Part shown: in pieces, positions 8,929 to 30,000 of the stretch
Position numbering within the stretch: the first letter of the stretch is position 1
Layout of the letters: every line of letters begins with the position of its first letter
NCBI GenBank assembly: GCA_016699205.1
Contig: CP064964.1
Location: forward strand, 240,001-272,000
DNA: 32,000 bases
Reading direction: 5' to 3'
DNA from: Candidatus Saccharimonadota bacterium
GTDB taxonomy: Bacteria > Patescibacteriota > Patescibacteriia > 2-12-FULL-60-25
Program-made: the position numbers and the translations under genes
Notes under the pieces: model-generated
The model's input: only the letters and a program-made list of their open reading frames with translations
Database searches by the model: none
What the model was told of the DNA's origin: nothing

Positions 8929-10026
8929 TTATGGCGCGAGCTCGAGCAATTTTGAGCGCGTCGCCGGACCAACCACTCCATACCCCGAATTTCCGGCTTT
9001 GGCAATACCTTGATCCACCTGGAACTTCTGAATGGCCGCTCGGGTTACGGGGCCAAAATAGCCGCTTAATGGCTTGATATTAAGCGCTTCTTGTACCCAA
9101 CGGACGTCTTCTCCTGTCATGCCTAGCACAAGGCTGCGAGCCGGTACCGGGTATTGGCTAGCCTTTTTGAAATGCTCTTCATCGGACCAAGCCCATTCCG
9201 CCAAGCGCTTCGCCGAGTCCATCGCAGCCTGCGTCGACTTGGAACCGAGTACAACGACAATCACGTCCCTTTTTTCTACTTTGGATTTTCCATCCGCAGC
9301 CAGTGGAGACATCTGAGCAGCGTAGTTGTACATCGACTCGGGCAGATACCCGGTTTTTCCGCCCACAAGATAGACATCCGGATCAGCGAGCAGCGGTGCA
9401 TTCGTATTTTTAATCGTATGTGTATTCGTGCTTCCGGCAAGCGTGAACGTGTATGTTCCACTTTGTGATGCACTGACGACTTTTTTCTGCTTGAATGCAT
9501 CGCGAGCGATCAGGGCCATGTCACGAGCTGTCGTCATGTTTTTTGGATTCATGCCGGACGGATCAAAAAACTTGGACGATACGGCCCCGATCGCTTTTGC
9601 CTTGGCATTCATCTTGGCAACGAAACTCGATACGCCCGGTCCGGCAAAACGCGCGATCGCGGTTGCGGCGTTGTTAGCACTCGAACCGATGGCGGATTGC
9701 CAGAGGTCGGCCAAGATGACGCGCGAACCGGCGGAAACGCGCAGACGCCCGCCGCCGACCTCGTCAGCCGAAGACATTTTTACTGCCGTGCCCCAATTCC
9801 AATTTTTATCGAGCATGACGAGCGCCATCATGAGCTTGGTCAAGCTTGCTGCCGTATGCGGTGCGTCAGGCTTGAAGCTATACAAAATCTTTCCATCCGG
9901 ACGCATCACAACGGCAGAAGCGAACTCGTTGGGAACCGGGACATACTCGGATGCATAGGCAATAGATCCTGCTCCTTGGAGCAGGATTACCATAGCGCAA
10001 GCAAGCGCAAAAATATGTCGTTTCAT
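8929..10026 (-). CDS. secreted D-alanyl-D-alanine carboxypeptidase (S11 PBP) with a C-terminal peptidoglycan-binding domain
   Basis: Signal peptide MKRHIFALACAMVILLQGAGSIAYA. SxxK motif (ASLTKLM), an SGMN SxN-like motif and KTG (GGKTGY) are present. The C-terminal GEDVRWVQEALNIKPLSGYFGPVTRAAIQKFQVDQGI is a PG_binding_1-type repeat. Confidence 0.82.
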   Translation of the reverse strand: MKRHIFALACAMVILLQGAGSIAYASEYVPVPNEFASAVVMRPDGKILYSFKPDAPHTAASLTKLMMALVMLDKNWNWGTAVKMSSADEVGGGRLRVSAGSRVILADLWQSAIGSSANNAATAIARFAGPGVSSFVAKMNAKAKAIGAVSSKFFDPSGMNPKNMTTARDMALIARDAFKQKKVVSASQSGTYTFTLAGSTNTHTIKNTNAPLLADPDVYLVGGKTGYLPESMYNYAAQMSPLAADGKSKVEKRDVIVVVLGSKSTQAAMDSAKRLAEWAWSDEEHFKKASQYPVPARSLVLGMTGEDVRWVQEALNIKPLSGYFGPVTRAAIQKFQVDQGIAKAGNSGYGVVGPATRSKLLELAP

Positions 10027-10029
10027 TCT

Positions 10030-10683
10030 TTATTTTTCAATGATAATTCTTGTTCCTACTGGCGCCCAGTCATACATCTCCTTGGCAGCGCCTATGCCCA
10101 TACGCACGCAGCCGTGGCTTGCTGGCTTTCCGAGATGACTTGCTCCCTCTTTTTTTCCGCCCGGCCACTCAGGCAGCTCGTGTAAGCCGTGGCCGCGCGT
10201 TGTGAAAGCCATCCAAAATGGCATCCAAAGTTTTGCGCTTTTTGACCAGGCGCGCGGGTACTTGTTCAGAACCTTAAATTCTCCTACCGGCGTCGGCGTG
10301 CTTGCAAGACCGCTCGAAACTTTAAATGCCTTGACCGCAACACCACCAACGCGCTTCTCCATCGTCTGTGTTTTAAGTTTAATAAAAATGGATTTTTCCA
10401 AACGGATCGGCTCAGAACTTGTTGGCGAGTAGGCCATCAAAATTTCGAGGCCATCTTCAAAACTGTCGCCATCCGTATCTTTATTATGAATATCGGTTCC
10501 AAACTTTCTCTCGTGTATATCCAAAAGACCATCACTATCCGTATCGAGCGTATCTGGCGTAGAAGTAGCCGCGTGCGTCGGTAGCGCAACAACAAGTAGC
10601 GTCGCGCTAAGCAAGAGCCAGAACCACGAGCGCCAAGACCAGGCGGTAGATGACGAAGCCGTCGTAACGGTGTTTGGCAACAT
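10030..10683 (-). CDS. L,D-transpeptidase (YkuD family) with N-terminal Asp-rich calcium-binding-like repeats
   Basis: YkuD catalytic motif HGLHELPEW...GKPASHGCVRM. DTDSDGLLD and DTDGDSFED are DxDxDG-like motifs. The signal peptide starts from the ATG at 10683; the longer ORF to 10746 begins with TTG. Confidence 0.8.
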   Translation of the reverse strand: MLPNTVTTASSSTAWSWRSWFWLLLSATLLVVALPTHAATSTPDTLDTDSDGLLDIHERKFGTDIHNKDTDGDSFEDGLEILMAYSPTSSEPIRLEKSIFIKLKTQTMEKRVGGVAVKAFKVSSGLASTPTPVGEFKVLNKYPRAWSKSAKLWMPFWMAFTTRGHGLHELPEWPGGKKEGASHLGKPASHGCVRMGIGAAKEMYDWAPVGTRIIIEK

Positions 10684-11395
10684 AAGAGACAAGGAAACGA
10701 ATGGCGAATAGGCCAAAGCCGAGCGCCGAGATAAAACCGACGACAAGCGCGATCACTTGATCCGCGGCGATCCCCTGCTTGGTCACACTGATGAGACCGT
10801 GAAGTCCGGCAGCAGCTGTGACCGGAATCGAAAGGAAGAATGAGAAGCGCGCGGCAGCCTGACGCGTCAAACCTGCAAGCAGCCCGGCGGTAATCGTGAT
10901 ACCCGAACGGCTGGTACCTGGGAACAAAGCGAGTGGCTGAGCAAAGCCGACAGCCAATGCCTGCGTCCATGATACCGATTCATACGCATCTAGGCGACTT
11001 TTCTTGCCCTCGCTCCATCGATCAGCACCAAACAAGATGAGACCAAAAAATACAAGATCAAAAGCGACAATCCAACCTTGGCGGACATTTGCCTCGATCC
11101 AATCGTTCGCAAAGAATGCGATGATGAGGGCTGGAAGCGTTGCGACGACGACTTTCAACATGAATCCCCAAGCTTTTTTTCGAAACAAGCCGACAATATC
11201 TTCACGGAAGAACCAAAGCAGAGCGACAAGCGTACCGAGATGCAAAACCGTATCAAACGCGAGACCCTGGTCTGGCCAGCGCAGTAATACCGGAACGAGA
11301 ATCAAGTGACCGCTGGATGAAATCGGAAAAAACTCCGCCAAGCCTTGTACCGCTCCGAGCACGAAGCCGCGGACCACATCGAACAGCGTATTCAT
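10607..11395 (-). CDS. uppP: undecaprenyl-diphosphate phosphatase
   Basis: LGAVQGLAEFFPISSSGHLIL and PGTSRSGITITAGL are the two BacA/UppP signature motifs. The protein is polytopic and hydrophobic. Confidence 0.92.
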   Translation of the reverse strand: MNTLFDVVRGFVLGAVQGLAEFFPISSSGHLILVPVLLRWPDQGLAFDTVLHLGTLVALLWFFREDIVGLFRKKAWGFMLKVVVATLPALIIAFFANDWIEANVRQGWIVAFDLVFFGLILFGADRWSEGKKSRLDAYESVSWTQALAVGFAQPLALFPGTSRSGITITAGLLAGLTRQAAARFSFFLSIPVTAAAGLHGLISVTKQGIAADQVIALVVGFISALGFGLFAIRFLVSYVAKHRYDGFVIYRLVLALVVLALA

Positions 11396-11397
11396 AT

Positions 11398-13551
11398 CTA
11401 CGTATCAAACATGATGCGCTCGCCCGGAGCAACGGAACGACTTGGCGACGAAGAAGGCTGCGGCGAAGGAGCGCTTGGTGCAGCTGAACCATTTTCTGGT
11501 TTTCCGCTACCAGAGCGTCGGCGTCGGCGTTTCTTTTTTTCACCTTCTGATGAAGAAGCGGCTACAGGAGCTAGCGCCGAAGTTGGACGCGGAGGAATGG
11601 TCCCAGCGCGTTTTTCCAGCGATTGTTTATGCATGTCTACAGCACCGCCTTTGGCTTTTAAGATTTCCGTCAGCAAATCTTCCTCTTCTGGTACTTGTGA
11701 AGCAGGGACGACTTGAATCTTGGAAGCTTGTGCCGGCTCTTGAACCAAGCGAGGACGATTTGGTGCGACATTGCGCGGCGCAAAACCAGATTCGCCGACT
11801 TCTGCCTCCCCTACTCCTTCAAGCGGGACTGGAGCGCGCTTGGCCGACTTGAAACCGCTCGACTTGTTCTTGCGTTCTTCTGCGATAATCGGACGGCACT
11901 CGGCGCAATAAACAGGACGTGATGTATCGAGCTGAATGGCGAGCTCGAATTTTTTGCCGCATCGATCACAGGTGTGAGCAAAGGCTGGGCGCTTCTTTTG
12001 CTGCTGAGGAATGCTTGCCTGAATAGCCGCCAAACGCTCGGGACGGATCGTCAGATATTCCGAAGCATCGCCCTGATGCTCGAGATCGGACATGGTTTCT
12101 TTCACGGTTTCTTTGGCTGCCTGCTCCTCTTCCGTCATGATCGCTGGATACTGGATGGTTGGCGCGGTTCCAAGCGGACCTTCCTGAGTGACAGGCGTTG
12201 AAGTTGTCGCTACAAGAGTTGCTGGTGAAAGAGTACCGCCGCCAGCAGGCGTCGTTTCCATGCCGGCCCATTTCAATACTTTTTCTTCAATCACCGGACG
12301 AGGCTCGGCGTAACGCTCGCGGCTTACCGCGACGACTTTAGCCTGGCTGTCCGTACGCGCCGCGATCGGCGGGAGTGTGTTGGCGGAGAAGGGCGGCGTC
12401 GCAACACCATCGACCATGAGCTTGAGGTAGATTTGGAATTTTGTGATGTTGACCAAATCTTCCGGCGTAAAGGTCGGAGCAAATTCCGTTTCCATGGCGA
12501 GCGCATCAGCTGCACCGACGCGCATCGCGATAATTGTTCCGACGTTACCGAAAATAGCAGCAGCAACTTCTTCCTCCAATTGCTCAATATATTGATGCGC
12601 GACGATCAAATTCAAACGGAACTTGCGCGCCTCAGACAGAATCGCGGCAAATGACTCGTTAGCGAAGTTTTGGAATTCGTCGACGTAGAAGTAGAAATCT
12701 TTACGCTCCTTCTCCGGCATGTTCTGACGCTCTTGGGCTGCAAGCTGAATCTTGGTGACGATCATTCCACCAAGCAAACGCATGTTATCTTCACCAATAC
12801 GGCCCTTGGAGAGGTTGACGATAAGAATTTTTTCATCGTCCATGATGCGGCGCAGATTGATGGTCGACTTTACCTGCGCGACGATGTTACGAATGACAGA
12901 GGACGATAAAAATTGTCCAACTTTGTTTTGAACTGGCGCGATGGCTTCTGTCGCGTATTTCTCCGACCAAGAAGCAAATTCTGCAATCCAAAATGTTTTG
13001 ACGATCGGATCGCGGATTTTGGCGACGACGCGTGCACGATAGTCCTTATCGACCAAGAGACGGTTGATGCCGAGCAAGGTAGCTCCCGGATAATCAAGAA
13101 GCGCGAGTACGCAGTTCATCAAAATGTACTCCATGCGAGCACTCCAAACGTCCGGCCAAATCTTTTTGAAAACGCCCATCAAACCGGAAGCGATCAATGG
13201 CTTCTGGTCATCGTTATCTGTTTCAAGAATGTTGAAACCGACAGGAAAATCCGTGTCAGCCGGGTTGAAGTAGATGAGATCGTTAATGCGGTTTGGCGGA
13301 ATGAAGTCGAGGAGTTTCTCGGCCGTGTCTCCGTGAGGATCGATCAAACAGCAGCCATGACCCTTGATAATATCGGACAAGATAAGACTTTCGATGAGCG
13401 TCGTCTTACCCATACCGGTTTTACCGATGATGTACATGTGGCGACGACGGTCATCGGTCTTGATTCCAAAACGGCGCTTGGCATTTCTAAAATTCGTTTC
13501 CGCGAAGAACGTAATATGCTCAAGGTGATCCTGACAATTTGCTGATGCCAT
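11398..13551 (-). CDS. TraD/VirD4-like (type IV coupling protein / HerA-FtsK class) P-loop ATPase, soluble, with a C-terminal CxxC-x17-CxxC zinc ribbon and a disordered basic tail
   Basis: Walker A YIIGKTGMGKTTL. Walker B FYFYVDEFQNF. VAHQY is sensor-like. No TM segment. The zinc ribbon is CDRCGKKFELAIQLDTSRPVYCAEC. The tail contains EGEKKKRRRRRSGSG. Confidence 0.75.
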   Translation of the reverse strand: MASANCQDHLEHITFFAETNFRNAKRRFGIKTDDRRRHMYIIGKTGMGKTTLIESLILSDIIKGHGCCLIDPHGDTAEKLLDFIPPNRINDLIYFNPADTDFPVGFNILETDNDDQKPLIASGLMGVFKKIWPDVWSARMEYILMNCVLALLDYPGATLLGINRLLVDKDYRARVVAKIRDPIVKTFWIAEFASWSEKYATEAIAPVQNKVGQFLSSSVIRNIVAQVKSTINLRRIMDDEKILIVNLSKGRIGEDNMRLLGGMIVTKIQLAAQERQNMPEKERKDFYFYVDEFQNFANESFAAILSEARKFRLNLIVAHQYIEQLEEEVAAAIFGNVGTIIAMRVGAADALAMETEFAPTFTPEDLVNITKFQIYLKLMVDGVATPPFSANTLPPIAARTDSQAKVVAVSRERYAEPRPVIEEKVLKWAGMETTPAGGGTLSPATLVATTSTPVTQEGPLGTAPTIQYPAIMTEEEQAAKETVKETMSDLEHQGDASEYLTIRPERLAAIQASIPQQQKKRPAFAHTCDRCGKKFELAIQLDTSRPVYCAECRPIIAEERKNKSSGFKSAKRAPVPLEGVGEAEVGESGFAPRNVAPNRPRLVQEPAQASKIQVVPASQVPEEEDLLTEILKAKGGAVDMHKQSLEKRAGTIPPRPTSALAPVAASSSEGEKKKRRRRRSGSGKPENGSAAPSAPSPQPSSSPSRSVAPGERIMFDT

Positions 13552-13554
13552 AGA

Positions 13555-14895
13555 TTAGCCAAATGGGATATTGGCTGGGGCCTCGGACTTTTTGGCCTCG
13601 ATGCGGCGCAAGCCAGGAGCTTTGACCTGGATCAAAATCGGGAAATGCCAAAGCGTCGCCAATTCTTCCGAAGACATGAAAAACTTTGGCAAGCCAGACC
13701 AGCCGCTGCGGCTGCGGTATGCACGAACCATTTTGCTCTTGCGTTCATTGTTGCGGCGGTCCTTGAACCACCAAAGCGTACCGTTCACGCCGACTTTGGA
13801 AGACGGTTTCAACGCCTGCATATTGAAGGTATTCACCTGCTTGATCGAACCGATGAACGGTTGAACAGCTTTGGATTTTTTCATGACCTCTTTCTTGGCG
13901 ACATACAAGAAACGAATCTTGCAGTTGAATCCGATCTTGGACGCTTTGCGCTCAACTGCTTCAAGCACCAGACGCTCGCCTGGCGAGAGCTTGAGAATTT
14001 CCGGCGTACCGTCTTTCTTTTCTTCTTTACCTCCCCCTCCACCTAATGCTGAACCTAAAATCAAATTAGCGATCTCAAAAAACACATTTAACGGAACGCT
14101 CACTATTTGCTCCGCAAATGAAGGCTTGGGCGTTTCTTTAATACCCTTGATCTTCTTTACGAGAGATTCGGCGCGTTTACGGAAATCGCGCTGATCGGTT
14201 GGCTGGAGAATAATTTGATACCAAGCTTGCTCGCCAGGACCAAGACGGGAGAATGTTTCCAAAAATGCGGCCATCGGGCCTTTGAATTCACCCGAAACCT
14301 TATCCTCAAACTCCGTGTAGGTTTTGAGCGGGTACGGGTCTGGCATGACATTGGTCATTTCCGTACACCAGACATCCCACTCGTCATTAGGATATTCCGC
14401 CGGGACTTGGCGCGCGTAATCCTCGACTTCATCGATCTCTGCATCCGGATACTGTGCGTACACCGCCGCCTCAACAAGATCACGAAGGCCTTTTAGGCAA
14501 AAGATATAGTAACTAACCTGGCCGTCGATAGAGGCAATCTCAATCGACATGACGGCTTGCGACGCGCCCTGAAGCCAAGTCTCGGTCCAAGAAGGCGGAC
14601 TGTGGGCCCCGGCGAGCAAAGCAAAAAGGTTTTCAACAGCCTTTACGGTTTGTTCACTCGCCTTTGGAACGCTGATGCGGAGAAGGATCCACTCGCGCTT
14701 GGCCGCTGCTTTGTTTTGTACGTATTCCAGCCATCCGTTCTTGATCATGAACCAGAGCACCGGAATCAGTATAAGCCAGCCTCCGCTCAGAAACAGATAA
14801 ATCATGGCAGAAAATGGATCATTTCCGGCCACGTTTAAGAACGCGTCGACATTAAAATTGAGGAACGGCAAGTAGCCGATGTATTCCTCGAACAT
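13555..14895 (-). CDS. hypothetical membrane-anchored protein, partner of the TraD-like ATPase
   Basis: The N-proximal hydrophobic segment FSAMIYLFLSGGWLILIPVLWFMI is followed by about 380 aa of unassigned sequence. The stop lies 3 nt before the ATPase start. The start is placed at the ATG at 14893-14895, downstream of the secF terminator. Confidence 0.6.
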   Translation of the reverse strand: MFEEYIGYLPFLNFNVDAFLNVAGNDPFSAMIYLFLSGGWLILIPVLWFMIKNGWLEYVQNKAAAKREWILLRISVPKASEQTVKAVENLFALLAGAHSPPSWTETWLQGASQAVMSIEIASIDGQVSYYIFCLKGLRDLVEAAVYAQYPDAEIDEVEDYARQVPAEYPNDEWDVWCTEMTNVMPDPYPLKTYTEFEDKVSGEFKGPMAAFLETFSRLGPGEQAWYQIILQPTDQRDFRKRAESLVKKIKGIKETPKPSFAEQIVSVPLNVFFEIANLILGSALGGGGGKEEKKDGTPEILKLSPGERLVLEAVERKASKIGFNCKIRFLYVAKKEVMKKSKAVQPFIGSIKQVNTFNMQALKPSSKVGVNGTLWWFKDRRNNERKSKMVRAYRSRSGWSGLPKFFMSSEELATLWHFPILIQVKAPGLRRIEAKKSEAPANIPFG

Positions 14896-14901
14896 AAGAC
14901 C

Positions 14902-14910
14902 ATTATAGCA
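14902..14910 (-). promoter_or_regulatory. extended -10 promoter element (TGcTATAAT), possibly giving a leaderless transcript
   Basis: The minus strand reads gttgTGcTATAATggtcttATG. TATAAT is a perfect match with a TG extension. The A of the ATG is the 7th nt after the -10. No convincing -35. Confidence 0.4.
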
Positions 14911-14915
14911 CAACA

Positions 14916-14943
14916 AAAAATCCCCCGCATCCGGGGGATTTTT
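14916..14943 (-). terminator. rho-independent terminator after secF (A-tract/T-tract flanked, potentially bidirectional)
   Basis: aaaaatccccc / gcatcc / gggggattttt forms an 11-12 bp stem starting 1 nt after the secF TAA. Confidence 0.7.
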
Positions 14944-14944
14944 C

Positions 14945-15847
14945 TTATTTTTTGAAGCGTTGTCCGAGCTTATCAATGGTGATAAGCAGCGGGGATGCAA
15001 TCAACATGGAGGCGAAGGTACCGACCGTGATACCCACGATCAATGGAAGCGTGAATTCATCCAACGTATCCCCACCGTAGAGGAAGATCGCGACCAAGGT
15101 GAGCAAGGTGGCCATCGAGTTAGTAATGGAACGGACGAATGTCTGACGAATGGACATTTCCACGATTTCCTTGAATGTTCCTTTGGCTTTTTGGAGGTTT
15201 TCACGGATGCGGTCCATGACAACGATGGTGTCCGTAATCGAGTAACCAATAATGGTCAGGATGGCGGCAACGAACGGCGTACCGATCTCGATACCGTACT
15301 GGTGACCCAAGAAGGCGTAGAGTCCGAGCGGAATCAAGACAACGAAACCGGAAGCCAAGATTGTGACGACACCGTACTTCCAAGATTCAACAGGGGCTGA
15401 GACTCCGCGGAAAGCGTAGGCAATGTAGATCAGAATCGCCAAAAGGGAGATTCCGAGACCGTTCAATGCTTTGGAGCGGATTTCATAACCGATCGAAGGA
15501 CCAATGGCGTCGTAGCGGAGCTCGGTGACTTCACCGAAGCGTTCGCGGAGGCTGGTCAAAATCGCCTGATGCTTTTCTTCCGAGACGGTTTTCAAACGGA
15601 ACTGGATATCTTTTTCACCAGCCGGCTGAATCACGATGGAACCGAGATCATCGGCGACATTGCGCAAAGCGGCGTCAGCATCGGCGATGGAAGGGCGCGT
15701 TTCAAAGCGAACAGCCATCAAGGTACCTCCGGTGAATTCAATCCCCTGCTTCAAGCCCCAGGCAAAAAGCATGACAAGCGATGCGAGTGCGAGGGCGCCG
15801 GCGATCGCGTACCAGGCTGGGCGAAGATTTACGAGCGTTGTTTTCAT
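14945..15847 (-). CDS. secF: protein translocase subunit SecF
   Basis: GIEFTGGT is followed by six hydrophobic helices, then YSITDTIVVMDRIREN. The start at MKTTLVNLRPAWY (ATG 15845-15847) lies 4 nt after the secD stop. Confidence 0.9.
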   Translation of the reverse strand: MKTTLVNLRPAWYAIAGALALASLVMLFAWGLKQGIEFTGGTLMAVRFETRPSIADADAALRNVADDLGSIVIQPAGEKDIQFRLKTVSEEKHQAILTSLRERFGEVTELRYDAIGPSIGYEIRSKALNGLGISLLAILIYIAYAFRGVSAPVESWKYGVVTILASGFVVLIPLGLYAFLGHQYGIEIGTPFVAAILTIIGYSITDTIVVMDRIRENLQKAKGTFKEIVEMSIRQTFVRSITNSMATLLTLVAIFLYGGDTLDEFTLPLIVGITVGTFASMLIASPLLITIDKLGQRFKK

Positions 15848-15851
15848 AAGA

Positions 15852-17903
15852 TTATTTCTTTCCAGAAGCAAGGAATAGCCACGGCCATTTTGCGAGCGGC
15901 GTCTTGGCCAAGGCACGCAATACCGTACGCGTGGTAACCGTAGCCGTGAACAAAGAGATGACGGTACCGAGCGCGAGCGTGAGAGCGAAACCCTTGATCA
16001 ATGACGAGGAGAACCAGAACAAGACGGCACAGGAGATCAGAATCGAGACGTGACCGTCGCGAATCGAGGTCCAGGCGCGCTTGAAGGCTTCTTCCAAGGC
16101 CGGCTCAAGCGCGAGTCCTGACTTCAATTCTTCCTTGAGACGCTCAAACACGAGCACGTTTGAGTCGATCGCCATACCGATCGAGAGAATGAAGCCGGCG
16201 ATACCGGAAAGCGTGAGCGTAATCGGTACAAGCTTGAAGGTGGCGGCGTTCAAGGCGGCGTAGATCACAAGCACGACAACGGCAGCCATACCCGGCAAGC
16301 GGTAGATCAGGATAGCGAAGATCGCGATCAAGAGGAATGCCACGAGTCCGGCGTTAATCGACTTGGTTAGCGAGTCTGCACCGAGCGTCGGGCCGACGGA
16401 TTGCTGGGCGACGAGCGTAATCGGCACTGGAAGCGCACCTGCCTGCAAACGGCGGGCAAGAAGCTTGGCTTCCTCGAGCGTGAAGTTACCTGTAATCACG
16501 GCGCGACCGCCGAGAATCTCCTGGTTCACAACCGGGGCCGAGAGCACGTTTCCGTCGAGGAAAATCGCGACCTGCTGGCCAACGTTTTTCTTCGTAAGTT
16601 CAGCAAACAACTTGCTACCCTCGTCATCAAATTGGAGCGAGACCTGGATGGAGCCGAGCTGTTGGTCAAAATCGACCTTCGCTGACTGCAGCTGCTTGCC
16701 GGTCAAAGCGGTGGCTTTCCACTCATCAACAGGAACGAAGTCGGTTGGAACGGAGCGGTTGATTTCAATCAAACGCAAGCGAGGTTCCTTGCTGATGCGC
16801 TCACCGAGTTTCCAGACGAGGTGATAACCGAATTCTGTTTCAATGACTTCGGAAATGGTTCCGGAAGCCTGGGCAAAGACTGGCGTCTCGAATTTTTCTA
16901 CCATGTCGCCCGTTCCGAACCAGCCAAGGTCACCCTTTGTTGACGTGGCGTTTGGTTCATCGGAGTTGGCAGCGACGAGGCTGTCGAAGTTTTCAATCGT
17001 GGCCTGCTTTTTAATGTCTTCGATTTTTGCTTTAGCTTCTTCTTTGGTACGCGTTGAGAGACCGCCCTGAGCACCCTGATATCCGATCAGCATGTGGTGC
17101 GCGTTCACTTCTTTCGGACCGTCCTTCAATTCTTCCATCTTTACAACGAGATAGACATTGTCGGTTTCAACGACATTCGGGAACACGGCGCCTGGCGCGA
17201 GACCGCCGACGGTGTCGAGAAGATCCTGCAAATCCTTGCTACCAGCGATGGTCGCTGCAGACAAAGCACCCGTGTCTCCCCCGTCAATTTTACGAGCGGC
17301 GTTTTCTGTTTTGTTCTTGGCGAGTTCCGCAAAATCCGTTTCCGGCTTTCTTGCTTCATCCAAAATAGCCTTGGCACGGGCAAGAGCATCCGTATTGCGC
17401 TTATCCATCTCATCCTGCTCTTCTTTGGTGAGTGGACGCGGTTTTTCCGTGTTCTTTTCCTTGAACTCAAGGATCGGCGTTTCACCGATAAGTTTGATAG
17501 CCTGGTTGACGTCGCGGATACCGGCGAGCTCCACGTTTACGCGCCATGCATCACCAGCTTGCGTAACCTGGATAACCGGCTCGGAAACGCCAAGCGAGTT
17601 GACGCGGCGCTCGATCACATCGCGGACGCCATCCATGGCTTCACGCTGTTCTGACGGCGCAACCTTGGAAACATCAGCCTCATATTCAAGCGAGGTTCCG
17701 CCCTGAAGATCAAGGCCGAGGACGAATGGCTTGTTGATCGTCGGAATATTGAGACCCGTGAGTTCGTTGACTTGGCCAACGACCCAGTTAGCAGGACCCG
17801 GGTAGGAAAGAGACCCTGCGGCAAGCAGAAGCAAGGCGAGCCAACCGAGGCGCGACATGACTGTTTTGCGGGAGGGCGTGGTTTGTCGGTTCATTCGAGA
17901 CAT
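15852..17903 (-). CDS. secD: protein translocase subunit SecD with an inserted PrsA/SurA-like chaperone plus parvulin PPIase module
   Basis: SecD motifs LGLDLQGGTSLEYE, IGETPILEFKE, VAIFLDGNVLSAPVVNQEILGGRAVITGNFTLEEAKLLARRLQAGALP and GMAIDSNVLVFERLKEE are present. A parvulin-like block lies between the P1 segments: HHMLIGYQG...GDLGWFGTGDMVEKFETPVF...EFGYHLV. Confidence 0.9.
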   Translation of the reverse strand: MSRMNRQTTPSRKTVMSRLGWLALLLLAAGSLSYPGPANWVVGQVNELTGLNIPTINKPFVLGLDLQGGTSLEYEADVSKVAPSEQREAMDGVRDVIERRVNSLGVSEPVIQVTQAGDAWRVNVELAGIRDVNQAIKLIGETPILEFKEKNTEKPRPLTKEEQDEMDKRNTDALARAKAILDEARKPETDFAELAKNKTENAARKIDGGDTGALSAATIAGSKDLQDLLDTVGGLAPGAVFPNVVETDNVYLVVKMEELKDGPKEVNAHHMLIGYQGAQGGLSTRTKEEAKAKIEDIKKQATIENFDSLVAANSDEPNATSTKGDLGWFGTGDMVEKFETPVFAQASGTISEVIETEFGYHLVWKLGERISKEPRLRLIEINRSVPTDFVPVDEWKATALTGKQLQSAKVDFDQQLGSIQVSLQFDDEGSKLFAELTKKNVGQQVAIFLDGNVLSAPVVNQEILGGRAVITGNFTLEEAKLLARRLQAGALPVPITLVAQQSVGPTLGADSLTKSINAGLVAFLLIAIFAILIYRLPGMAAVVVLVIYAALNAATFKLVPITLTLSGIAGFILSIGMAIDSNVLVFERLKEELKSGLALEPALEEAFKRAWTSIRDGHVSILISCAVLFWFSSSLIKGFALTLALGTVISLFTATVTTRTVLRALAKTPLAKWPWLFLASGKK

Positions 17904-17965: not shown

Positions 17966-18742
17966 TCAATTCCCGAGCTGCGGCTCCATCTTGGGAGGCG
18001 TGCGGCGCATGACAAGATATTGCTGGGCAACGGTGAGCAAGCTCATTACGAGCCAGTACAAGGTGAGACCACCAGGGAGTGAGAAACCGATGACAGCCGT
18101 CATGATCGGCATCATGTAAGTCATTTGTTTGTTCATGATGGCGGTCATGCTTTCATCCTGAGCGCCTTCTGTCTTGGCGACTTCCGGCGGAGGCGTTGCG
18201 ACCGTGGCTGCCGGCGGCTTCAAAATCATCTTGGTCTGCCAGAACTGGACGAGGGCAGCAGCGATCGCCAAGACGTAGTTTGGTTTGGTGAGATCAAATA
18301 ATCCGAGGAACATCGTTTGGATAGTCTGCGGATTTGGGACAAATGGGTAGAGCTGGTTCAAGCCCTGCGATGCAAGACCAACAGACAAGGCGTGATAGAG
18401 CGCGATAAAAACTGGAAGCTGGACCAAAAGCGGCAAACAGGAAGCGGCCGGATTCACTTTCTCGCGCTGATAAAGCGCCATGAGCTCCGAGGCCTGCTTT
18501 TCTTTATCGTCCTTCAAACGAGAACGAATCTCCTCGATCTTAGGCTGCAATTCCTGCATCGCGCGCTGCTGCTTGATCTGCAGATGCGTCAACGGATAGA
18601 GCACGATCTTGATGATGATCGTTAATACGATAATGGCGATACCAACATCCTGTCCCGGAATCGTGACATACAACCACACCAACAAATTGAGAATCGGCTG
18701 GAAGAAGATGGTGTTAAAGAGAGCTTGGATCGCTTGGAACAT
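17966..18742 (-). CDS. yidC: membrane protein insertase YidC (short, Oxa1/SpoIIIJ-like)
   Basis: IIVLTIIIKIVLYPLTHLQIKQQRAMQELQPKIEEIRSRLKDDKEKQASELMALYQREKVNPAASCLPLLVQLPVFIALY is the conserved YidC core. Confidence 0.9.
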   Translation of the reverse strand: MFQAIQALFNTIFFQPILNLLVWLYVTIPGQDVGIAIIVLTIIIKIVLYPLTHLQIKQQRAMQELQPKIEEIRSRLKDDKEKQASELMALYQREKVNPAASCLPLLVQLPVFIALYHALSVGLASQGLNQLYPFVPNPQTIQTMFLGLFDLTKPNYVLAIAAALVQFWQTKMILKPPAATVATPPPEVAKTEGAQDESMTAIMNKQMTYMMPIMTAVIGFSLPGGLTLYWLVMSLLTVAQQYLVMRRTPPKMEPQLGN

Positions 18743-18750
18743 AGATTATT

Positions 18751-20130
18751 TTATTCTTTTGAATCGCTTCCCTGCTCGGCTGCAACGACCGGCGTCTGCT
18801 CGGAATAGCCTTCCATCTCTTTGGCTTCTGCCGGCTCGCCATCAAGCGGCTTGTCGGCTTCTGATTCCGACTTAGCATCGGCTTCTGCGGCAGATTCTGG
18901 CTTGTCGTCCTCGACTGGAGCGCCGAACTCCCCTTTTTCCGAATCGGCGACCGGTTTACCGCCCTGCTCGACGACCGTGATCTTCCAACCTGTCAGTTTA
19001 GCGGCGAGGCGAACGTTCTGACCGCCTTTACCGATCGCGAGCGAGAGCTGATCCGCCGGAACCGAGACAACAGCGAGGTGTTCATCTTCACGAAGCTCGA
19101 CATCGATGACTTTGGCCGGCGAAAGAGCCGCTTTGATGTATTCGATCGGCTGTTCATTCCAGAGCACGACATCGACTTTTTCACCGCCGAGTTCACGGAT
19201 AACCGACTGAATACGCGTACCGCGCTGACCGATACAAGAACCGATCGGGTCTACGGCGTCGTCATTGGAAGCGACGGCGACTTTGGCGCGGCTGCCAGCT
19301 TCACGGGAAATCGCTTTGATGTCGACCGTGCCGTTACCGATTTCCGGAATTTCTTGTGCGAACAATGCCGCAACAAGCTGCGGGCTCGTACGCGAGAGAC
19401 GAATCTCTGGACCACGCGTCGTCATCTCGACGGAACGGAGCAAAGCCTTGATGCGCGTTCCCGGGAAGTAGCGTTCCGATTCAACCTGATCTTCCGGAAG
19501 CATGATGCCCGTTGCGCGGCCAAGGTCGATCAAAACGAGACGGCCTTCACGGCGTTGAACCGTGACATTCATAAGCTCGCCTTCGCGACCCTTGAAGTCG
19601 GAGAAGATGACGCCGCGTTCTGCCTCGCGGATCTTTTGCAAGATAACCTGCTTAGCGGTCTGGGCGGCCATACGGCCGAATGCGGCAGGAACGCCAAGCT
19701 CCACGCGGATCTCCTCGCCGACTTGGGCGTCAGGCTTGAGGTCGCGAGCGTCGCTCATCATGATCATCGTCTTTGGATTGAACTTGAATTCATCCGGAAG
19801 AACTTCTGTCGCGGCCGGATCAGGGCGTGGGGTCGACTTATCAAAAGGCTTGTCCTTTTTAGGCGCCGTCGCCGCTTCAAGACGCGTAAAGTAGTCCTCG
19901 TCGAGAACCATGTCTTCCACAACGGTCTTTACGTCGAATACGCGAATACCGCCGGTCATACCGTCGTACTTTTCCGGGTCAAACTCGACACGGAGGTTCT
20001 GGTTCTTGTTGCCGAAGTCCTTGCGATAAGCGGCGGCAAGGGCGTTTTCTACGGTTTCGAGCACTGATTCGAACGAAATATTCTTTTCGTCCGCAATCTG
20101 TTTCATCGCGGCGGAGATTGGGCTAGCCAT
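18751..20130 (-). CDS. nusA: transcription termination/antitermination factor NusA with an acidic low-complexity C-terminal tail
   Basis: The N-terminal domain IADEKNISFESVLETVENALAAAYRK, an S1 domain, and KH domains (CIGQRGTRIQSVIRELGGEKVDVV and AIGKGGQNVRLAAKLTGWKITV) are present. The tail is rich in E, D, A and K. Confidence 0.92.
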   Translation of the reverse strand: MASPISAAMKQIADEKNISFESVLETVENALAAAYRKDFGNKNQNLRVEFDPEKYDGMTGGIRVFDVKTVVEDMVLDEDYFTRLEAATAPKKDKPFDKSTPRPDPAATEVLPDEFKFNPKTMIMMSDARDLKPDAQVGEEIRVELGVPAAFGRMAAQTAKQVILQKIREAERGVIFSDFKGREGELMNVTVQRREGRLVLIDLGRATGIMLPEDQVESERYFPGTRIKALLRSVEMTTRGPEIRLSRTSPQLVAALFAQEIPEIGNGTVDIKAISREAGSRAKVAVASNDDAVDPIGSCIGQRGTRIQSVIRELGGEKVDVVLWNEQPIEYIKAALSPAKVIDVELREDEHLAVVSVPADQLSLAIGKGGQNVRLAAKLTGWKITVVEQGGKPVADSEKGEFGAPVEDDKPESAAEADAKSESEADKPLDGEPAEAKEMEGYSEQTPVVAAEQGSDSKE

Positions 20131-24083: not shown

Positions 24084-27000
24084 CTACGGAGCTGTACTTG
24101 TTGACACTACATTAGCTCGAAGCTGTAGCGAGCCCGGATAGACAATCCAAGGTCTACTTGTTCGGCTTGTAGAAGGTACGGGAACGGTTGGAATCGAATC
24201 CAATATATCACCCTTACACTCACTAACAGGTAGAACCAAGTTAGCTACGACGTTACTAAGTGATGAACTTGTATTGCTTCTGATGTTAGGATCTCCACCA
24301 AGAGTAGATCCCGCCCAGCAGCCACCATTTGGATGACGGACTGTTGAGGCGGTCGGGCCTACGGTGACGTCATCTGGCTGACCTCCTGTGAGACCGGCGC
24401 GGCATTCGCCAGTACACCAGCCGAAGTTGTCTTGAATCATGACACGTGGGCTAAAGCGGCAGGTGCGGATTTCTTCATCGAAACATCCGCCGACTGGAGC
24501 CAAGCCTTCGAGACAGATATCGCCAGGAGCACATTCTGAGGTAGAGCCTGGAGTGGTACAGGTGCGGTTGGTATCGCGGGAACAGCGAGGCGAGTTGGAA
24601 CAGGCAGGCAAGCCAGAGCCATCGCGAGTCGTTTGCTGCGCGCCACATGTGTACAAGTGGGCGTAGTCAAAGTAGTCGGACTGACAGGCTTCCGTGCTGT
24701 TACCGAACATCGTACGGATGTTACAGGTGTCGCGTACACCGCCGACCGTACAGTCAGTATCCTGAGAACAGGAGAGGTTGGCATTCTGTGCACAGGTTCC
24801 GATCGCCACACAGGTACCAGCACCGGCAGGACAGTCAGCGTTGGTCTGACAGGTTAATCCTGGGGTCAAAGAACATTCGCGCTGGACTCCGCAGAATGGC
24901 TTGCGGTTCTTCATGCGTGTGTCGTCGACGCGCTGGGTTGAACCATCGCCCCAATCGATCACAACTTGGCGGAGCGGCATCTGGTTATGAGCAGACCAAG
25001 CGTAGAAGCGCATGGTCGACTTGTGCGAACCGCCGCCTACGTTGATGACGCCGTCGGTTTGACCGTTGAAGGCAAAGGCATCGACGCGTGAAACAGGACA
25101 CTGACCCGGAACTGCGCAGTTACGCGTGTCCGGAGCGGCCAAACGAGGCGGACGAGGCGTGTAGTACGACATGTAGCGGAAGGTTGCTGCGCCGACACCA
25201 GATCCCGTGAAGCCGAGGAATGTCGGCGTGTACATACCGAGCGTGTGGTCGGTTGGTAACGGATGCGGACCGCTCGGATCAAGTGAACCATCCAAGCTGC
25301 GATCCGTGATGCGATAAGCGATCAAACCGCAGAATTCATCAGCCGGGTTAGGACAAATATCGATACGCGGCTGATAACCGCCGGAGTGCGTACAGATATT
25401 GTTGTCTGTATCCGGGTTGTCCGAACGATTTGGTCCGGTGTCGCTGCTGCCAGGGACGCGACAGACCGCGATCGGAGTAAAGTCTGGAGAAGGACCGGAG
25501 ACTGGAATACAGGAGTTGCGGGCGGCCACTTCTTCACCGGCAGGAAGGTTCACTTCACAAGAACCATAGGTTCCGGCGCGCGGCATTTCTACACGGCCAT
25601 CCGGGCTCGCGCGGTAGAAACAGACCTGCGTATCACGCAAACCTCCGACACAGCGACCGAGCCAGCCTGGATCCGGAGCCGCACACACCGTGGAGGCTGG
25701 GACCTCGGTGAAGTTACAGTCGCTATCCGCGCCACAGGTGTTGCGAGTTTCATCTGCTGTGAGTCCTGTTGTTGCAAACGCACTACACTTTTTGTCTGGC
25801 AAACACGTTCTTCCTTCAACACGAACCGGACAATCAAAGCTAGCGGCTTCCGGTGCGGCACAAGTTGTCGCTACGTTCGGCCCAATATTTGTCTGACATC
25901 CGAAAGCAAAGTGCGGAGCACGCCCTGCCAACTCGGTTGAAATCGGTGCTGGTAATGGGCTTGCCGTTCTGTTCCAGAATCCTGGAGAAACTTCCGTCCA
26001 GCCCACCGGGGCGCAGGCGTTAAGTAACGATGCGATTGTGCCATCTTCCTTGGTGAATGAAGGAGCCTTACAGACATCGACGCTCTCTGCACAGGAAAGC
26101 AAACGGCTGATTCCACCGCGACAGACTTTCTGCGCGATATTTTCATCTTCCGTAAGCGGCAAGGCACAGGCGCCATCGACAGAACAGGATGGCGATGCCG
26201 TCGATCCAGTAGCTTCTGGCGTACAGCGTGTTCCTTTGAACGGACCGTCGGTACAGGCACGATCAACCTTGGAGACTGGGAGGAACTGGAAGCGATAGAC
26301 GCGATAGATACGCGCGAACAAGTTGGAGAGATATGCCCACTTGTCACCCGGGACCGTGTTTGGACGATAGTAGGTCTGTGATGGCGGGGCCAAGAATGTT
26401 GGCGGATTGAGCGGCGAGAATCCGGTAATTTCCGATCCGCTCTGGAACAGCGGCTCGATGCCGGCCGGGCCCGTGTTGATTGCGCTCGAGAATGGCGAGG
26501 CGCTATCAGAATACTGGAGACCGGTTCCTGGCTCGCGGAAATCGCCACGGCGCCAGACGCGATCCGTGAAGGCGGCGTCTTGGTTGGAATTCTTACTGCG
26601 AACTTCCGCCAATTCCTTACATACGCTCGCGGTTCCGACTTCCATGTTCATGTAGATGTAACGCTGATCGCCGCCAGTGTCGCCGCCACAAGCTGAGACC
26701 CAGAAACCAACGAAGCGCCACGGACCAGCCACATTGTCTTGGGTCAAATCAGATCCGGTAGCTGTCGTATTCTCTGAACGAGATTCGAAGACGGCACGTA
26801 CAGCAAAGTATGGCTTGCTGTTTTCACAAACGCTCTGGATCGGATCGCGGCGGATATCGAGCAAACCGCGGACGATGATGTCGGTTGGCGTACCGTCTTG
26901 GCCAGCGCGCTGGAGACCAACGAATTTCTTTTGGTTGGTCGAGCGATAGTCGAGCTCCCAATACTTGATGTAACACTTAGCGTTTGGATCCGGATTTCCA

Positions 27001-30000
27001 ACGCACGAGACCTGGAACGGACGACCGCCGCGCGAGGAGTAAATACCTTCCTGTCCGCGCGTAAGATACGGGTTGTAGTTCTCGTAGAATTTATCGCGCC
27101 ATTCCGTGTCTTTTGGACGGTTTGATCCGGCATCATCGTAATTCACGCTGCCCAAGTTATCGACCCAGGCGGCCTGATATCCACATGCGATGCGGCCGTG
27201 AGGGCCCTTGATCGGATCGATCTTGAAGTACGAGATCGTGTTGTCGCTCAATCCTGATTCAAAGAACTGCGTGCGGCGTGCGCGGAATGCCGGATCGCTG
27301 CTCATATACTCACTCGTATCCTCTTCTGAGCCATCTACACTTCCGTCAACGTTGCCCGGTTTCGGTGCACCAAGCAACTGAAGCTGTTGAGCGAGGTTAT
27401 CGTCATTGGTGCGCAGGAAGTATTCACCGTATCCAGCGCCGGCGTCGACAAGGCGGATGCCGTAAGAATCGTTTTCATTGGCGCCTCCGGAAATTTCATC
27501 AAAGGACCCATCATCGTCTTGGTCATCGTCAGCCAATTCACAATCGGTGGTTGCCGTGTAATACGACTCCGGCTTTGCTCCAAAGATAGAAGCAAAGTAG
27601 TTTTGATCTTCACCAAGAATACCGCTGTTGTCGGCCGAGACCCAGTCGTCACGATAATCAATTTTTGTCATCCAACCAGCAAAGAAGCGCAGGCGGCCAC
27701 GACGATCTCCGCCAAAGATACTACCCGGACCGTGATCCCAATCATCATCACCCGCGTAATGCATATTTGCCGGTTTCACCTCTGCGTTTCCGTCACCAGG
27801 TCCGTTCTGCGGACTATTGAATTGCGAGAACGAGGTCCAGATGAAGCGGGCCTTGGTCGGCTTCTTCACCGGAGAAACACAGTAGTACTGACCGGAGTTT
27901 TGCGGCGGCAAGTAACCAGAAGTTGGTTGATAGTGGAACGAGTCTTTATCGCCAAAGAGAATTGGGGTTGGATTCCATGTCAAACATGGCTTGTTCGCCT
28001 GATCTTCACCGATAATGCGCGTTTCATCGCGCTCCAAACACTGGCCAAATACACCGCGGATGATTTCAAGCTTGTTGAATGCGACACAGCGACCGCCTCC
28101 TTCTGGCGCGCCACAAGTCTGCGCAGCATTGGAACCTTCCACGCCCTGCACAAGCTCTTGGGTTTCAGTTCCACCTGAGCTTGCAGCTGGAGCTGTGCGG
28201 CCGCCTTGCGTTTGAATCTGGAAGATGGTTGCCGGCAAGCAAGCTTGACCATCGCGAGGACCGCCCTGACAGATTCCTGGCGGAACATCTTGGGACAATG
28301 AACTGAAAAATTTGCTGAAGGCAGTTGAACCGTACTGAGCACGCTTATAGTTACAGACGCAGTCTTCTCCGAATTCACAAGTGTTGGCGCTGTTGAAACC
28401 TCCAAGCTTGCTGACTGGTTTTGGCGGATTCGTCGTGAGATCCCATTCTGTCACGTAGCTTTGACCAAATGGAGAATCTGCTTCCGGATTCACACGACAC
28501 TCGGCCGGAGGGAAGGAGTTGGTCAGAGTCGGATCGACGCGCGGATCATCGAGAGAGAAACGCGTTGAGACATTCTGGAAATTAGTGTTGTCACCGCCTG
28601 ATTTTACCGGGAGATAGCAGTTAACGACGGACTTGTTAGCAATTCCAGAGGCGAACAATTCCGTAGAGAGGTAATAACCAATGATACCTGTTCCAACATG
28701 CTGACAGAGATTCAGATCAGGATTTGCAAGCTGAACAGGCGTTCCCGTTAATGGACGGGCGTCATTAGGTCCGAAGGTAGCACGAACTCTGTACAAGCTT
28801 CCGAAACGATCAAGCGGAATTTGAACCGCTGCTGCAAGACGGTAATCAAGTGCAAAACGGTACTTGTTGTCATCGACATTGTTTGCACCTTCCGAACCTA
28901 CGCGAGCTGTTACAAGCTCAGGAATCTGGAATGTGTCCGGAACAGCGTAACCGGAGTAGTCTTTTTCACCCAAACCAACTGGACGCTCCGTATAACTTGC
29001 GATGTCGAAGAATTTACCGCGCTGCATGACGACTTCGTCCTCGGAATCGCGATCGACGTAGTTAGCGCAGAAAATTTCACCTGGGCGGTTGGTGGATTTA
29101 TCGCACAATGCCACATTGGTACAGATTTCCTTGTAGCGGCTTGTGGCAGGATCAAATACCGATTCACTTGAACGACAGCCGAGCCACTGAGCACAGTCAC
29201 GGTCAACCTTCACTTTGAGTAACACGTTAGCATCGTTTTCCTCTGCGAGAACGGCTTCACAAGCCGGATCCGTCGGGTTGCGGAAACAGTCAACAGGAAC
29301 CGTCGGTCGGAAGTCGTTGTTCTCGTACTTGTTATAGGAGGCAGCGACATTGTATTTGAGAATCGGATCCGTCATGTCGCGCATAAGCACACAGCCTTGG
29401 CCAACATCGACATTGCCCTGACAGGTCGTCTTATCGAGACGATCGTCGTTTACAAAGAAGTATGGTTTGCCCGTTCGATGAAGCGGGTCGCTTGTGTCGT
29501 TGATATCGCGGAATTCCGTACATTCCGAGGCAGAACCAGGACAGAGACCTGTCCAACCAGCCCAGATCGGATCGCCGCGCTTAGGCAACGGGAAATTACG
29601 GCCGCCTTCCAAGGCTTCCGGATAACATGGCTTGGCAGGACTTGAACCTTGTCGGAACCAGCCATCGTATTCCGCTTCCGGCAAGGTATCGAGCAGTGCG
29701 CCGTCTGCGGCGGTGAAGTCATCACCGGACAAGCGGACGCCTTGGCGGAATTCACAAACTTTGCGCTGCGGATCGCGGAAGTAGTCGTTGGCGCCGCCGT
29801 ACTTATATTCTTCACAGAATTCCTCGGATGGCTTACAGAGCGCATCGCCGTACTTGGTGATGTCATCCTTATAATAGACGGTCTGATACGACTCGATGCT
29901 GGAGCGATCAACGGAATAGACCGGCTTTCCGAAAGCGCGACAAGAGGCGTTCTCGCGCTGACAGACCTTAGACTGGTCGTACACGACGTAAATCATGCGG

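Follow-up and report, generated by a model that had tools for sequence, protein, structure and literature searches.

A SecD protein with two parvulin domains inserted in its extracytoplasmic P1 domain in bacteria of the candidate phyla radiation

The secD gene of an uncultured, ultra-small Candidatus Saccharimonadota bacterium (assembly GCA_016699205.1), which lies in a 32,000-nucleotide (nt) stretch of contig CP064964.1 (positions 240,001 to 272,000, hereafter the window), encodes a subunit of the protein-export machinery whose extracytoplasmic P1 domain is interrupted by an insert of two parvulin domains. The first of these, called ParA here, is degenerate, and the second, ParB, is a canonical parvulin peptidyl-prolyl isomerase (PPIase) domain. 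The best explanation of these observations is a lineage-specific SecD of the Parcubacteria-type bacteria of the candidate phyla radiation (CPR), with a nested pair of parvulins in P1. The insert is probably a folding or holding module directed at exported substrates, and, less surely, ParB may be enzymatically active, judging by its conserved residues.

The secD gene and its parvulin insert

The open reading frame (ORF) of 683 amino acids (aa) has the following parts, where TM stands for transmembrane.

15852–17903, minus strand: secD ORF, 683 aa, with TM1, the insert-bearing P1 domain and five C-terminal TM helices (ORF list, Pfam, NCBIfam, match to 3aqp, AlphaFold2 model)
17451–17735, minus strand: Sec_GG motif and N-terminal half of the P1 base, aa 57-151, with ILEFKE as its last strand (Pfam; aligns with residues 34-116 of Thermus thermophilus SecDF)
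17118–17426, minus strand: ParA, degenerate parvulin, aa ~160-262, beginning at helix alpha1, its own beta1 missing and without catalytic His (Pfam, alignment columns)
16806–17108, minus strand: ParB, canonical parvulin PPIase domain, aa 266-366, signature H270/E316/H361 (Pfam, alignment, Foldseek)
16755–16796, minus strand: strand after ParB, aa 370-383 (PRLRLIEINRS), the putative displaced beta1 of ParA, His lost (DSSP of both models, alignment)
16425–16718, minus strand: P1 head subdomain, aa 396-493 (Pfam SecDF_P1_head, E 6.4e-34, profile positions 17-114 of 114)
15912–16412, minus strand: SecD/SecF C-terminal TM domain, aa 498-664 (Pfam SecD_SecF_C; long helices in the model)

By every measure examined, the ORF is a bona fide SecD, with matches well above what chance would give. 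It scores 362 bits against the NCBIfam equivalog-domain model TIGR01129 (cutoff 244.4), and Pfam places Sec_GG at aa 57-77 and SecD_1st at aa 90-151 (E 1.4e-15). T. thermophilus SecDF (Protein Data Bank, PDB, entry 3aqp) aligns at E 1.9e-75 in two blocks, aa 61-148 and aa ~366/396-670, and passes over the insert. Long helices span aa 506-558, 565-594, 599-631 and 634-666 of the full-length AlphaFold2 (AF2) model, for which Foldseek ranks SecDF structures first (E 1e-19 to 1e-21). Together, Pfam, the model and Foldseek give the complete SecD architecture of TM1, P1 base and head, and a five-TM SecD_SecF_C bundle. The insert itself amounts to about 245 extra residues, with the P1-base strand ILEFKE on one side and the P1 head on the other. 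It comes after the strand that corresponds to T. thermophilus residues 112-116 and before the first strand of the head, which places it at the crossover from base to head.

ParB is matched by Pfam Rotamase (PF00639) over aa 270-363 at E 1.4e-27 and 96.9 bits, against a cutoff of 21.7. Across an alignment of 58 homologous sequences, with identity to the query as low as 56%, H270, H361, S314 and G324 are invariant (58/58 each), E316 (57/58), L326 (57/58) and F338 (56/58) are nearly so, and M334 is kept in 48/58. On these residues, ParB carries the catalytic signature of the parvulins: the His pair, an acidic residue, here Glu, at the Cys/Asp position, and a hydrophobic proline pocket. The position of E316 corresponds to Cys113 in Pin1 and to Asp in PrsA and Par14, in a loop that is one residue longer and with an assignment that is ambiguous by one position.

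The beta1-alpha1 loop of ParB (aa 273-287) is long and, by eye, resembles the Pin1 type. The phosphate-binding residues of Pin1 (K63, R68 and R69) would fall at G274, Q279 and G280 by the same reading, the basic residues being gone. If that reading is correct, phospho-specificity is not expected of ParB. The loop also holds the motif TRTKEEA, presumably identical to the Pin1 sequence. In the Foldseek ranking, Pin1 PPIase domains stand as high as bacterial PrsA domains.

When ParA was scanned alone (aa ~150-265), Rotamase matched aa ~166-260 at E 4.8e-8 and 34.3 bits, above the gathering score of 21.7 and over profile positions 10-96 of 97. No His occurs at either position of the catalytic pair in the columns of the 58-sequence alignment: the beta4 position has Y251, then L, A, I, T or V, rather than His, and the displaced beta1 has L, A or V where relatives with a single parvulin have His. 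The strand after ParB aligns to 'EVRASHILIRKK' of these single-parvulin SecDs, and aa 372-383 of the window protein (KEPRLRLIEINR) to their His-bearing strand, with Leu at the position of the His. Re-ordering ParA in silico with the putative beta1' brought no gain (33.9 against 34.3 bits), as fits a degenerate strand, and the case for a circular permutation rests therefore on the single-parvulin relatives. By position and alignment, ParA would be the orthologue of the active permuted parvulin of those proteins.

Structure prediction suggests how the two domains may be joined. The full-length AF2 model has a mean predicted local distance difference test (pLDDT) of 81 and a predicted template-modelling score (pTM) of 0.42, and a model of aa 128-425 has a pLDDT of 90 and a pTM of 0.70. 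In both, DSSP assigns two strands of 24 residues, aa 250-273 and aa 359-382, each of which is too long for a single parvulin domain; the former links beta4 of ParA to beta1 of ParB, and the latter links beta4 of ParB to a further strand at aa 370-382. Beta1 and beta4 are antiparallel neighbours in parvulins, and by this adjacency aa 370-382 would complete the ParA sheet as its missing beta1. The lobes would then be connected by a continuous two-stranded ribbon, and the two long strands, running through both domains, would form a stiff two-lobed arm.

Foldseek searches of the PDB matched single lobes to Pin1, to the PPIase domains of Staphylococcus aureus and Bacillus anthracis PrsA, and to SurA P2, with target-normalised TM-scores (TMt) of 0.75-0.83 and root-mean-square deviations (rmsd) of 2.4-2.9 Å. 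No PDB structure found by Foldseek superposes on both lobes, the best query-normalised TM-score (TMq) being about 0.32-0.33 (SurA, rmsd 12-17 Å). PrsA 4wo7 and SurA 1m5y each fit one parvulin lobe only (TMq 0.27-0.32, rmsd 12-19 Å), and nothing in the insert matched the NC domain of PrsA in the same search. It is conceivable, if rather doubtful, that the modelled arrangement, a nested, circularly permuted and strand-swapped tandem, is a parvulin topology not seen before.

An earlier note on this DNA, made from the sequence alone, had proposed a SecD with canonical blocks on both sides of an insert and a parvulin at nt 16806-17108 (aa 266-366). Both proposals are borne out, the first by the Pfam domains and TIGR01129 score above and the second, with its exact coordinates, by the Rotamase match to ParB. 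The whole insertion had been assigned to nt 16749-17456, which correspond to aa 150-385 of the minus-strand ORF, and to the P1 head; it does lie within the extracytoplasmic P1, at the base-to-head crossover and outside the head. The first part of the insert had been read as a helical PrsA/SurA-like chaperone region, and this reading gives way to the second, degenerate parvulin. No SurA_N or trigger-factor-like chaperone domain was found in the segment by Pfam at E values up to 10, the NCBIfam PrsA models stop at 34-43 bits, with cutoffs of 343-361, and the PpiD-like model PRK10788 at 37.5, with a cutoff of 493, and Foldseek fits parvulin lobes only, which together rule out such a chaperone domain.

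Relatives, spread and origin

All 120 of the best database matches carry Rotamase and SecD domains, at 56-98% identity and a length of about 680 aa; those that are named appear as plain 'SecD' of Uhrbacteria, Magasanikbacteria, Nomurabacteria or the 'Patescibacteria group'. A scan of species-representative genomes confirmed at least 533 of 600 candidate stretches, and the best 80 were taken for locus analysis. The whole insert is covered in each of these 80 loci. Six-frame analysis of the 80 and the window found a single ORF with the order Nterm-ParA-ParB-Head-TM in 72 of 81, the remaining nine being cut or too divergent for the custom ParA model. The two-parvulin SecD is the same single ORF in at least 80 species-level genomes, from Uhrbacteria, Magasanikbacteria and related Parcubacteria.

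Some of the loci with a CPR-type SecD and synteny come from records with other titles. Several third-party-annotation (TPA) metagenome-assembled genomes (MAGs) are titled 'uncultured Gammaproteobacteria bacterium' (L003, L007, L013-L015, L017, L020 and others), and loci L022 and L023 carry the titles 'Candidatus Binatia' and 'Acutalibacteraceae', one each. The order nusA-yidC-secD-secF on contigs of 0.76-0.93 Mb (0.93 Mb for L020) suggests that these are mislabelled Patescibacteria.

No further parvulin ORF was found within 6 kb on either side of secD in the 80 loci, nor in the 32-kb window, which is not a genome-wide test. The top match that is not a SecD, a triple-parvulin protein (P0132), was considered as a stand-alone parvulin of the CPR and rejected. 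Its family belongs to Planctomycetes, Myxococcales and Deltaproteobacteria, on contigs of 8-12 Mb, not to the CPR, and is therefore uninformative on the PrsA content of CPR genomes.

A wider profile search of 1.84 billion representatives returned 543 proteins at E <= 1e-30, and the top 150 were classified with custom domain hidden Markov models (HMMs). Four classes were distinguished: SecDs with two parvulins; a single chain (P0162, 1015 aa) that unites a parvulin-bearing SecD with SecF; forms whose inserts exceed two parvulins in size (P0229, 776 aa, and P0259, 781 aa); and SecDs with a single parvulin, among them P0237, P0250 and P0254, from Uhrbacteria, Buchananbacteria and Patescibacteria. 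P0286 and P0287, of about 905 aa, are further architectural variants of the parvulin-bearing SecD.

The single-parvulin class, whose insert occupies the same site, bears on the origin of the insert. Its segments follow the order ILEFKE, alpha1 (LTxEE...N..A), SEDPGSKEQGGDLGWF, FGWHII, a variable linker, EVRASHILIRKK and the head. Both catalytic His are kept (P0254, P0324, P0358 and others), and the His-bearing beta1 (EVRASHILI) comes after beta4. When beta1 was moved to the front in silico, the Pfam Rotamase match grew from profile positions 8-97 to 1-97, with gains from 72.4 to 76.4 bits for P0358 and from 70.1 to 73.4 bits for P0324; with the Rotamase_3 model the scores rose from 93 to 98 and from 72 to 76 bits. 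The domain is a circularly permuted parvulin that, from its residues, would be catalytically intact. It shares 31-37% identity with ParA and 36-42% with ParB, and ParA and ParB share only about 29% with each other.

Considering this order, ParB would sit in the beta4-beta1' loop of a permuted ParA in the two-domain form. The most economical history suggested by the sequences has three steps. An active permuted parvulin would have been present in the P1 domain of SecD; a second parvulin of canonical order would then have arisen in its beta4-beta1' loop; and the outer domain, ParA, would finally have lost catalysis. Tandem duplication of a permuted domain would yield exactly the two-domain order seen.

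Single-parvulin proteins of some Uhrbacteria (P0254, P0276 and P0279) have a low-complexity linker of 30-60 residues, for example SGVTAVTESGAPVSIDVKGVEGVGG, at the site of ParB, that is, between 'FGWHII' and 'EVRASHILI'. P0254 has an additional Asp-rich segment (DTDGDGVVTERD) within the P1 head, with the look of a calcium-binding sequence.

The gene neighbourhood

The genes that flank secD are the following.

14945–15847, minus strand: secF, a gene of its own, with the ATG 4 nt past the secD stop codon (Pfam SecD_SecF_C, E 6.7e-46, and Sec_GG; sequence read)
17966–18742, minus strand: yidC (60KD_IMP), immediately upstream of secD (Pfam)
18751–20130, minus strand: nusA, upstream of yidC (Pfam)

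The partner gene secF is the next gene after secD in the window and in all eight related loci that were displayed, out of 80. The order nusA-yidC-secD-secF recurs in loci L001 and L020. The N-terminal domain profile of NusA is matched in two stretches, the better of which pairs aa 110-172 with profile positions 61-118; the split suggests an insertion of about 50 residues, rich in Pro, Asp and Lys, and the protein ends in a long acidic C-terminal tail.

Two genes lie directly downstream of secF (13555-15000 and 11398-13551, both minus strand). One encodes a predicted membrane protein of 481 aa without a Pfam match, which also follows secF in locus L001, and the other a TrwB/VirD4-like coupling ATPase of 717 aa (TrwB_AAD_bind, E 4e-13, and TraG-D_C) with a treble-clef zinc finger. 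Further along, a D-Ala-D-Ala carboxypeptidase (S11) with PG_binding_1 and UppP/BacA are encoded at 8929-10026 and 10607-11395 (both minus strand), and their presence points to a peptidoglycan-containing envelope in this organism. An ORF of 2627 aa (24084-31967, minus strand) has no Pfam match at E <= 0.001. Giant surface proteins are typical of CPR genomes, and this ORF may be one of them.

Comparison with known systems and proposed function

The window protein shares with canonical SecD and SecDF (T. thermophilus 3AQP/5YHF; the Escherichia coli holotranslocon 5MG3) the Sec_GG motif, the P1 base and head, the TM bundle resembling resistance-nodulation-division (RND) transporters, and the adjacent secF. 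It differs at the site of the insert, where T. thermophilus SecDF has about 30 residues and the window SecD about 245, with two parvulins. SecD of the E. coli type is also longer at this site (window aa 390 corresponds to E. coli 318); to our knowledge, it has no Rotamase domain there.

A second comparison is with the extracytoplasmic parvulins PrsA, SurA and PpiD, which have in common with the insert the parvulin fold, the location outside the cytoplasm and a presumed action on proteins leaving SecYEG. SurA, with its P2 and P1, pairs one active parvulin with one inactive, much as ParB and ParA would be paired if ParB is active. Unlike these proteins, the insert has no NC or SurA_N domain, lipobox, membrane anchor of its own or dimerisation module, and its parvulins are predicted to be nested and strand-continuous, whereas those of PrsA, SurA and PpiD hang on flexible tethers. 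By analogy, the insert would be PrsA-like in its working without being a member of the PrsA family.

Work on other bacteria has already placed parvulins close to SecDF. SurA binds the holotranslocon, and AlphaFold puts its parvulin domains on the P1 head of SecDF (Troman et al. 2023, PMC9987972); there, too, parvulins would lie on or near the P1 head, and SecDF is proposed to bring a chaperone to the exit of SecYEG, in a contact that is transient, non-covalent and partly AlphaFold-based, whereas the window parvulins are within the SecD polypeptide. PpiD-YfgM likewise associates with SecYEG (PMC9643414). In Mycoplasma pneumoniae, the PrsA-like PPIase lipoproteins Mdp444, Mdp436 and Mdp489 form a folding dome over SecYEG-SecDF (bioRxiv 10.1101/2025.04.25.650208, 10.1101/2024.09.05.611430), in which substrate density touches the sole active PPIase domain, that of Mdp444 (bioRxiv 10.1101/2025.04.25.650208). 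This genome-reduced monoderm also couples a parvulin PPIase physically to SecDF and has one active domain among inactive paralogues; its dome, however, consists of separate, very large trimeric lipoproteins that enclose a chamber and carry SurA-like helical domains, with no SecD fusion.

Literature searches, incomplete in coverage, turned up no paper on a SecD fused to a parvulin or on a parvulin with circularly permuted order, in keeping with the initial impression that this was not a described architecture. The combination of SecD and Rotamase is surely listed in architecture tables of the InterPro type. A protein-export machine and a folding helper naturally fused in this way appear not to have been described before.

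In the established SecDF model (Tsukazaki 2011, reviewed in PMC6028853), the emerging chain is bound by the P1 head, and a proton-driven swing of the head pulls that chain from SecYEG. SecDF of the window organism would likewise use the proton-motive force (PMF) to swing its head, take hold of the chain at the SecYEG exit and draw it outward. With the parvulins fused in, their arm could then act as a holdase or PPIase that is carried on the moving P1 element, at the hinge of base and head, and secreted and membrane proteins would come upon a folding catalyst on leaving the channel. ParB would provide isomerisation, and ParA, its catalysis lost, could serve as a scaffold and/or a peptide-binding surface. 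Such an arrangement would be the covalent counterpart of the non-covalent PrsA, PpiD-YfgM, SurA-SecDF and Mycoplasma dome complexes and would suit a monoderm cell with a small genome. A bolder version, offered tentatively and with a good deal of doubt, is that SecD is a PMF-driven foldase, its parvulin arm fixed rigidly to the base-head hinge by two continuous beta strands and each head swing moving the ParB site between the SecYEG exit, for capture and isomerisation, and a position of release.

Several points weigh against this proposal. PPIase activity, substrate binding and an effect on secretion are all inferred. The Cys/Asp catalytic position of ParB holds Glu, in the longer loop where the alignment is ambiguous by one position. 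The ribbon and strand-swap geometry was deduced from DSSP strings and parvulin topology, and the full-length pTM of 0.42 gives no firm position for the arm with respect to head, base or SecYEG. Moreover, the parvulin domains of SurA (P1) and PpiD, which are associated with the translocon, lack PPIase activity and are nonetheless functional, so that catalysis need not be the function under selection.

This last point leads to the rival that survives best, a purely non-catalytic binding arm, in which the lobes would enlarge the capture surface of the P1 head as a holdase or ratchet and the His residues would be structural. The unusual Glu of ParB would agree with it, as would the retention of ParA in all two-domain members despite the loss of its catalytic residues. 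However, H270, H361, S314 and E316 of ParB persist in 57-58 of the 58 aligned sequences, with overall identity as low as 56%, and their loss in the neighbouring ParA points to selection that acts on the active site in particular. The single-parvulin variants likewise keep both His. A binding arm of this kind is regarded as unlikely.

Another means by which the arm could act is on SecDF and its partners, by docking to YidC, SecYEG or the envelope, or by isomerising a proline of the SecD hinge to gate the head. The position of the insert, exactly at the base-head crossover, the adjacent yidC gene and the predicted rigidity of the arm (pTM 0.70) lend this idea some appeal, but nothing specific points to a partner, translocon parvulins elsewhere contact substrates, as with the active domain of Mdp444, and a conserved, generic active site without phospho-specificity would fit broad substrate use. 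It is considered quite improbable. Finally, the possibility that an assembly, frameshift or gene-calling artefact joined a separate prsA-like gene to secD has in its favour only the general caution due to a metagenome-like sequence, no specific point having been found, and is negligible in view of the same unbroken ORF in 80 or more independent assemblies at species level (among them contigs of 0.6-1.24 Mb), the SecD blocks in one frame on both sides of the insert, a GC content without break across the gene, and the nesting of the insert within a domain, unlike the product of a simple two-gene join. As far as sequence comparison allows, the artefact is refuted, and the insertion stands.

The preferred reading, a folding or holding module that acts on exported substrates, bears on how proteins pass from the Sec channel to folding factors outside the cytoplasm, an active question in view of PpiD-YfgM, SurA-SecDF and the 2025 Mycoplasma dome. 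A covalent fusion kept in many CPR species is Rosetta-stone evidence for parvulin foldases at the P1 domain of SecDF, and the window SecD, compact and in one chain, can serve as a model for structural and biochemical work. If the PMF-driven foldase were real, translocation, pulling and folding catalysis would be mechanically coupled in one polypeptide. The apparent topology, a domain in a domain in a domain, is unusual, and the family would form a series from one active permuted parvulin to one decayed and one active. Thousands of database entries named plain 'SecD' conceal this extra, presumably enzymatic module, by which genome-reduced CPR bacteria may economise on the proteostasis of their envelope.

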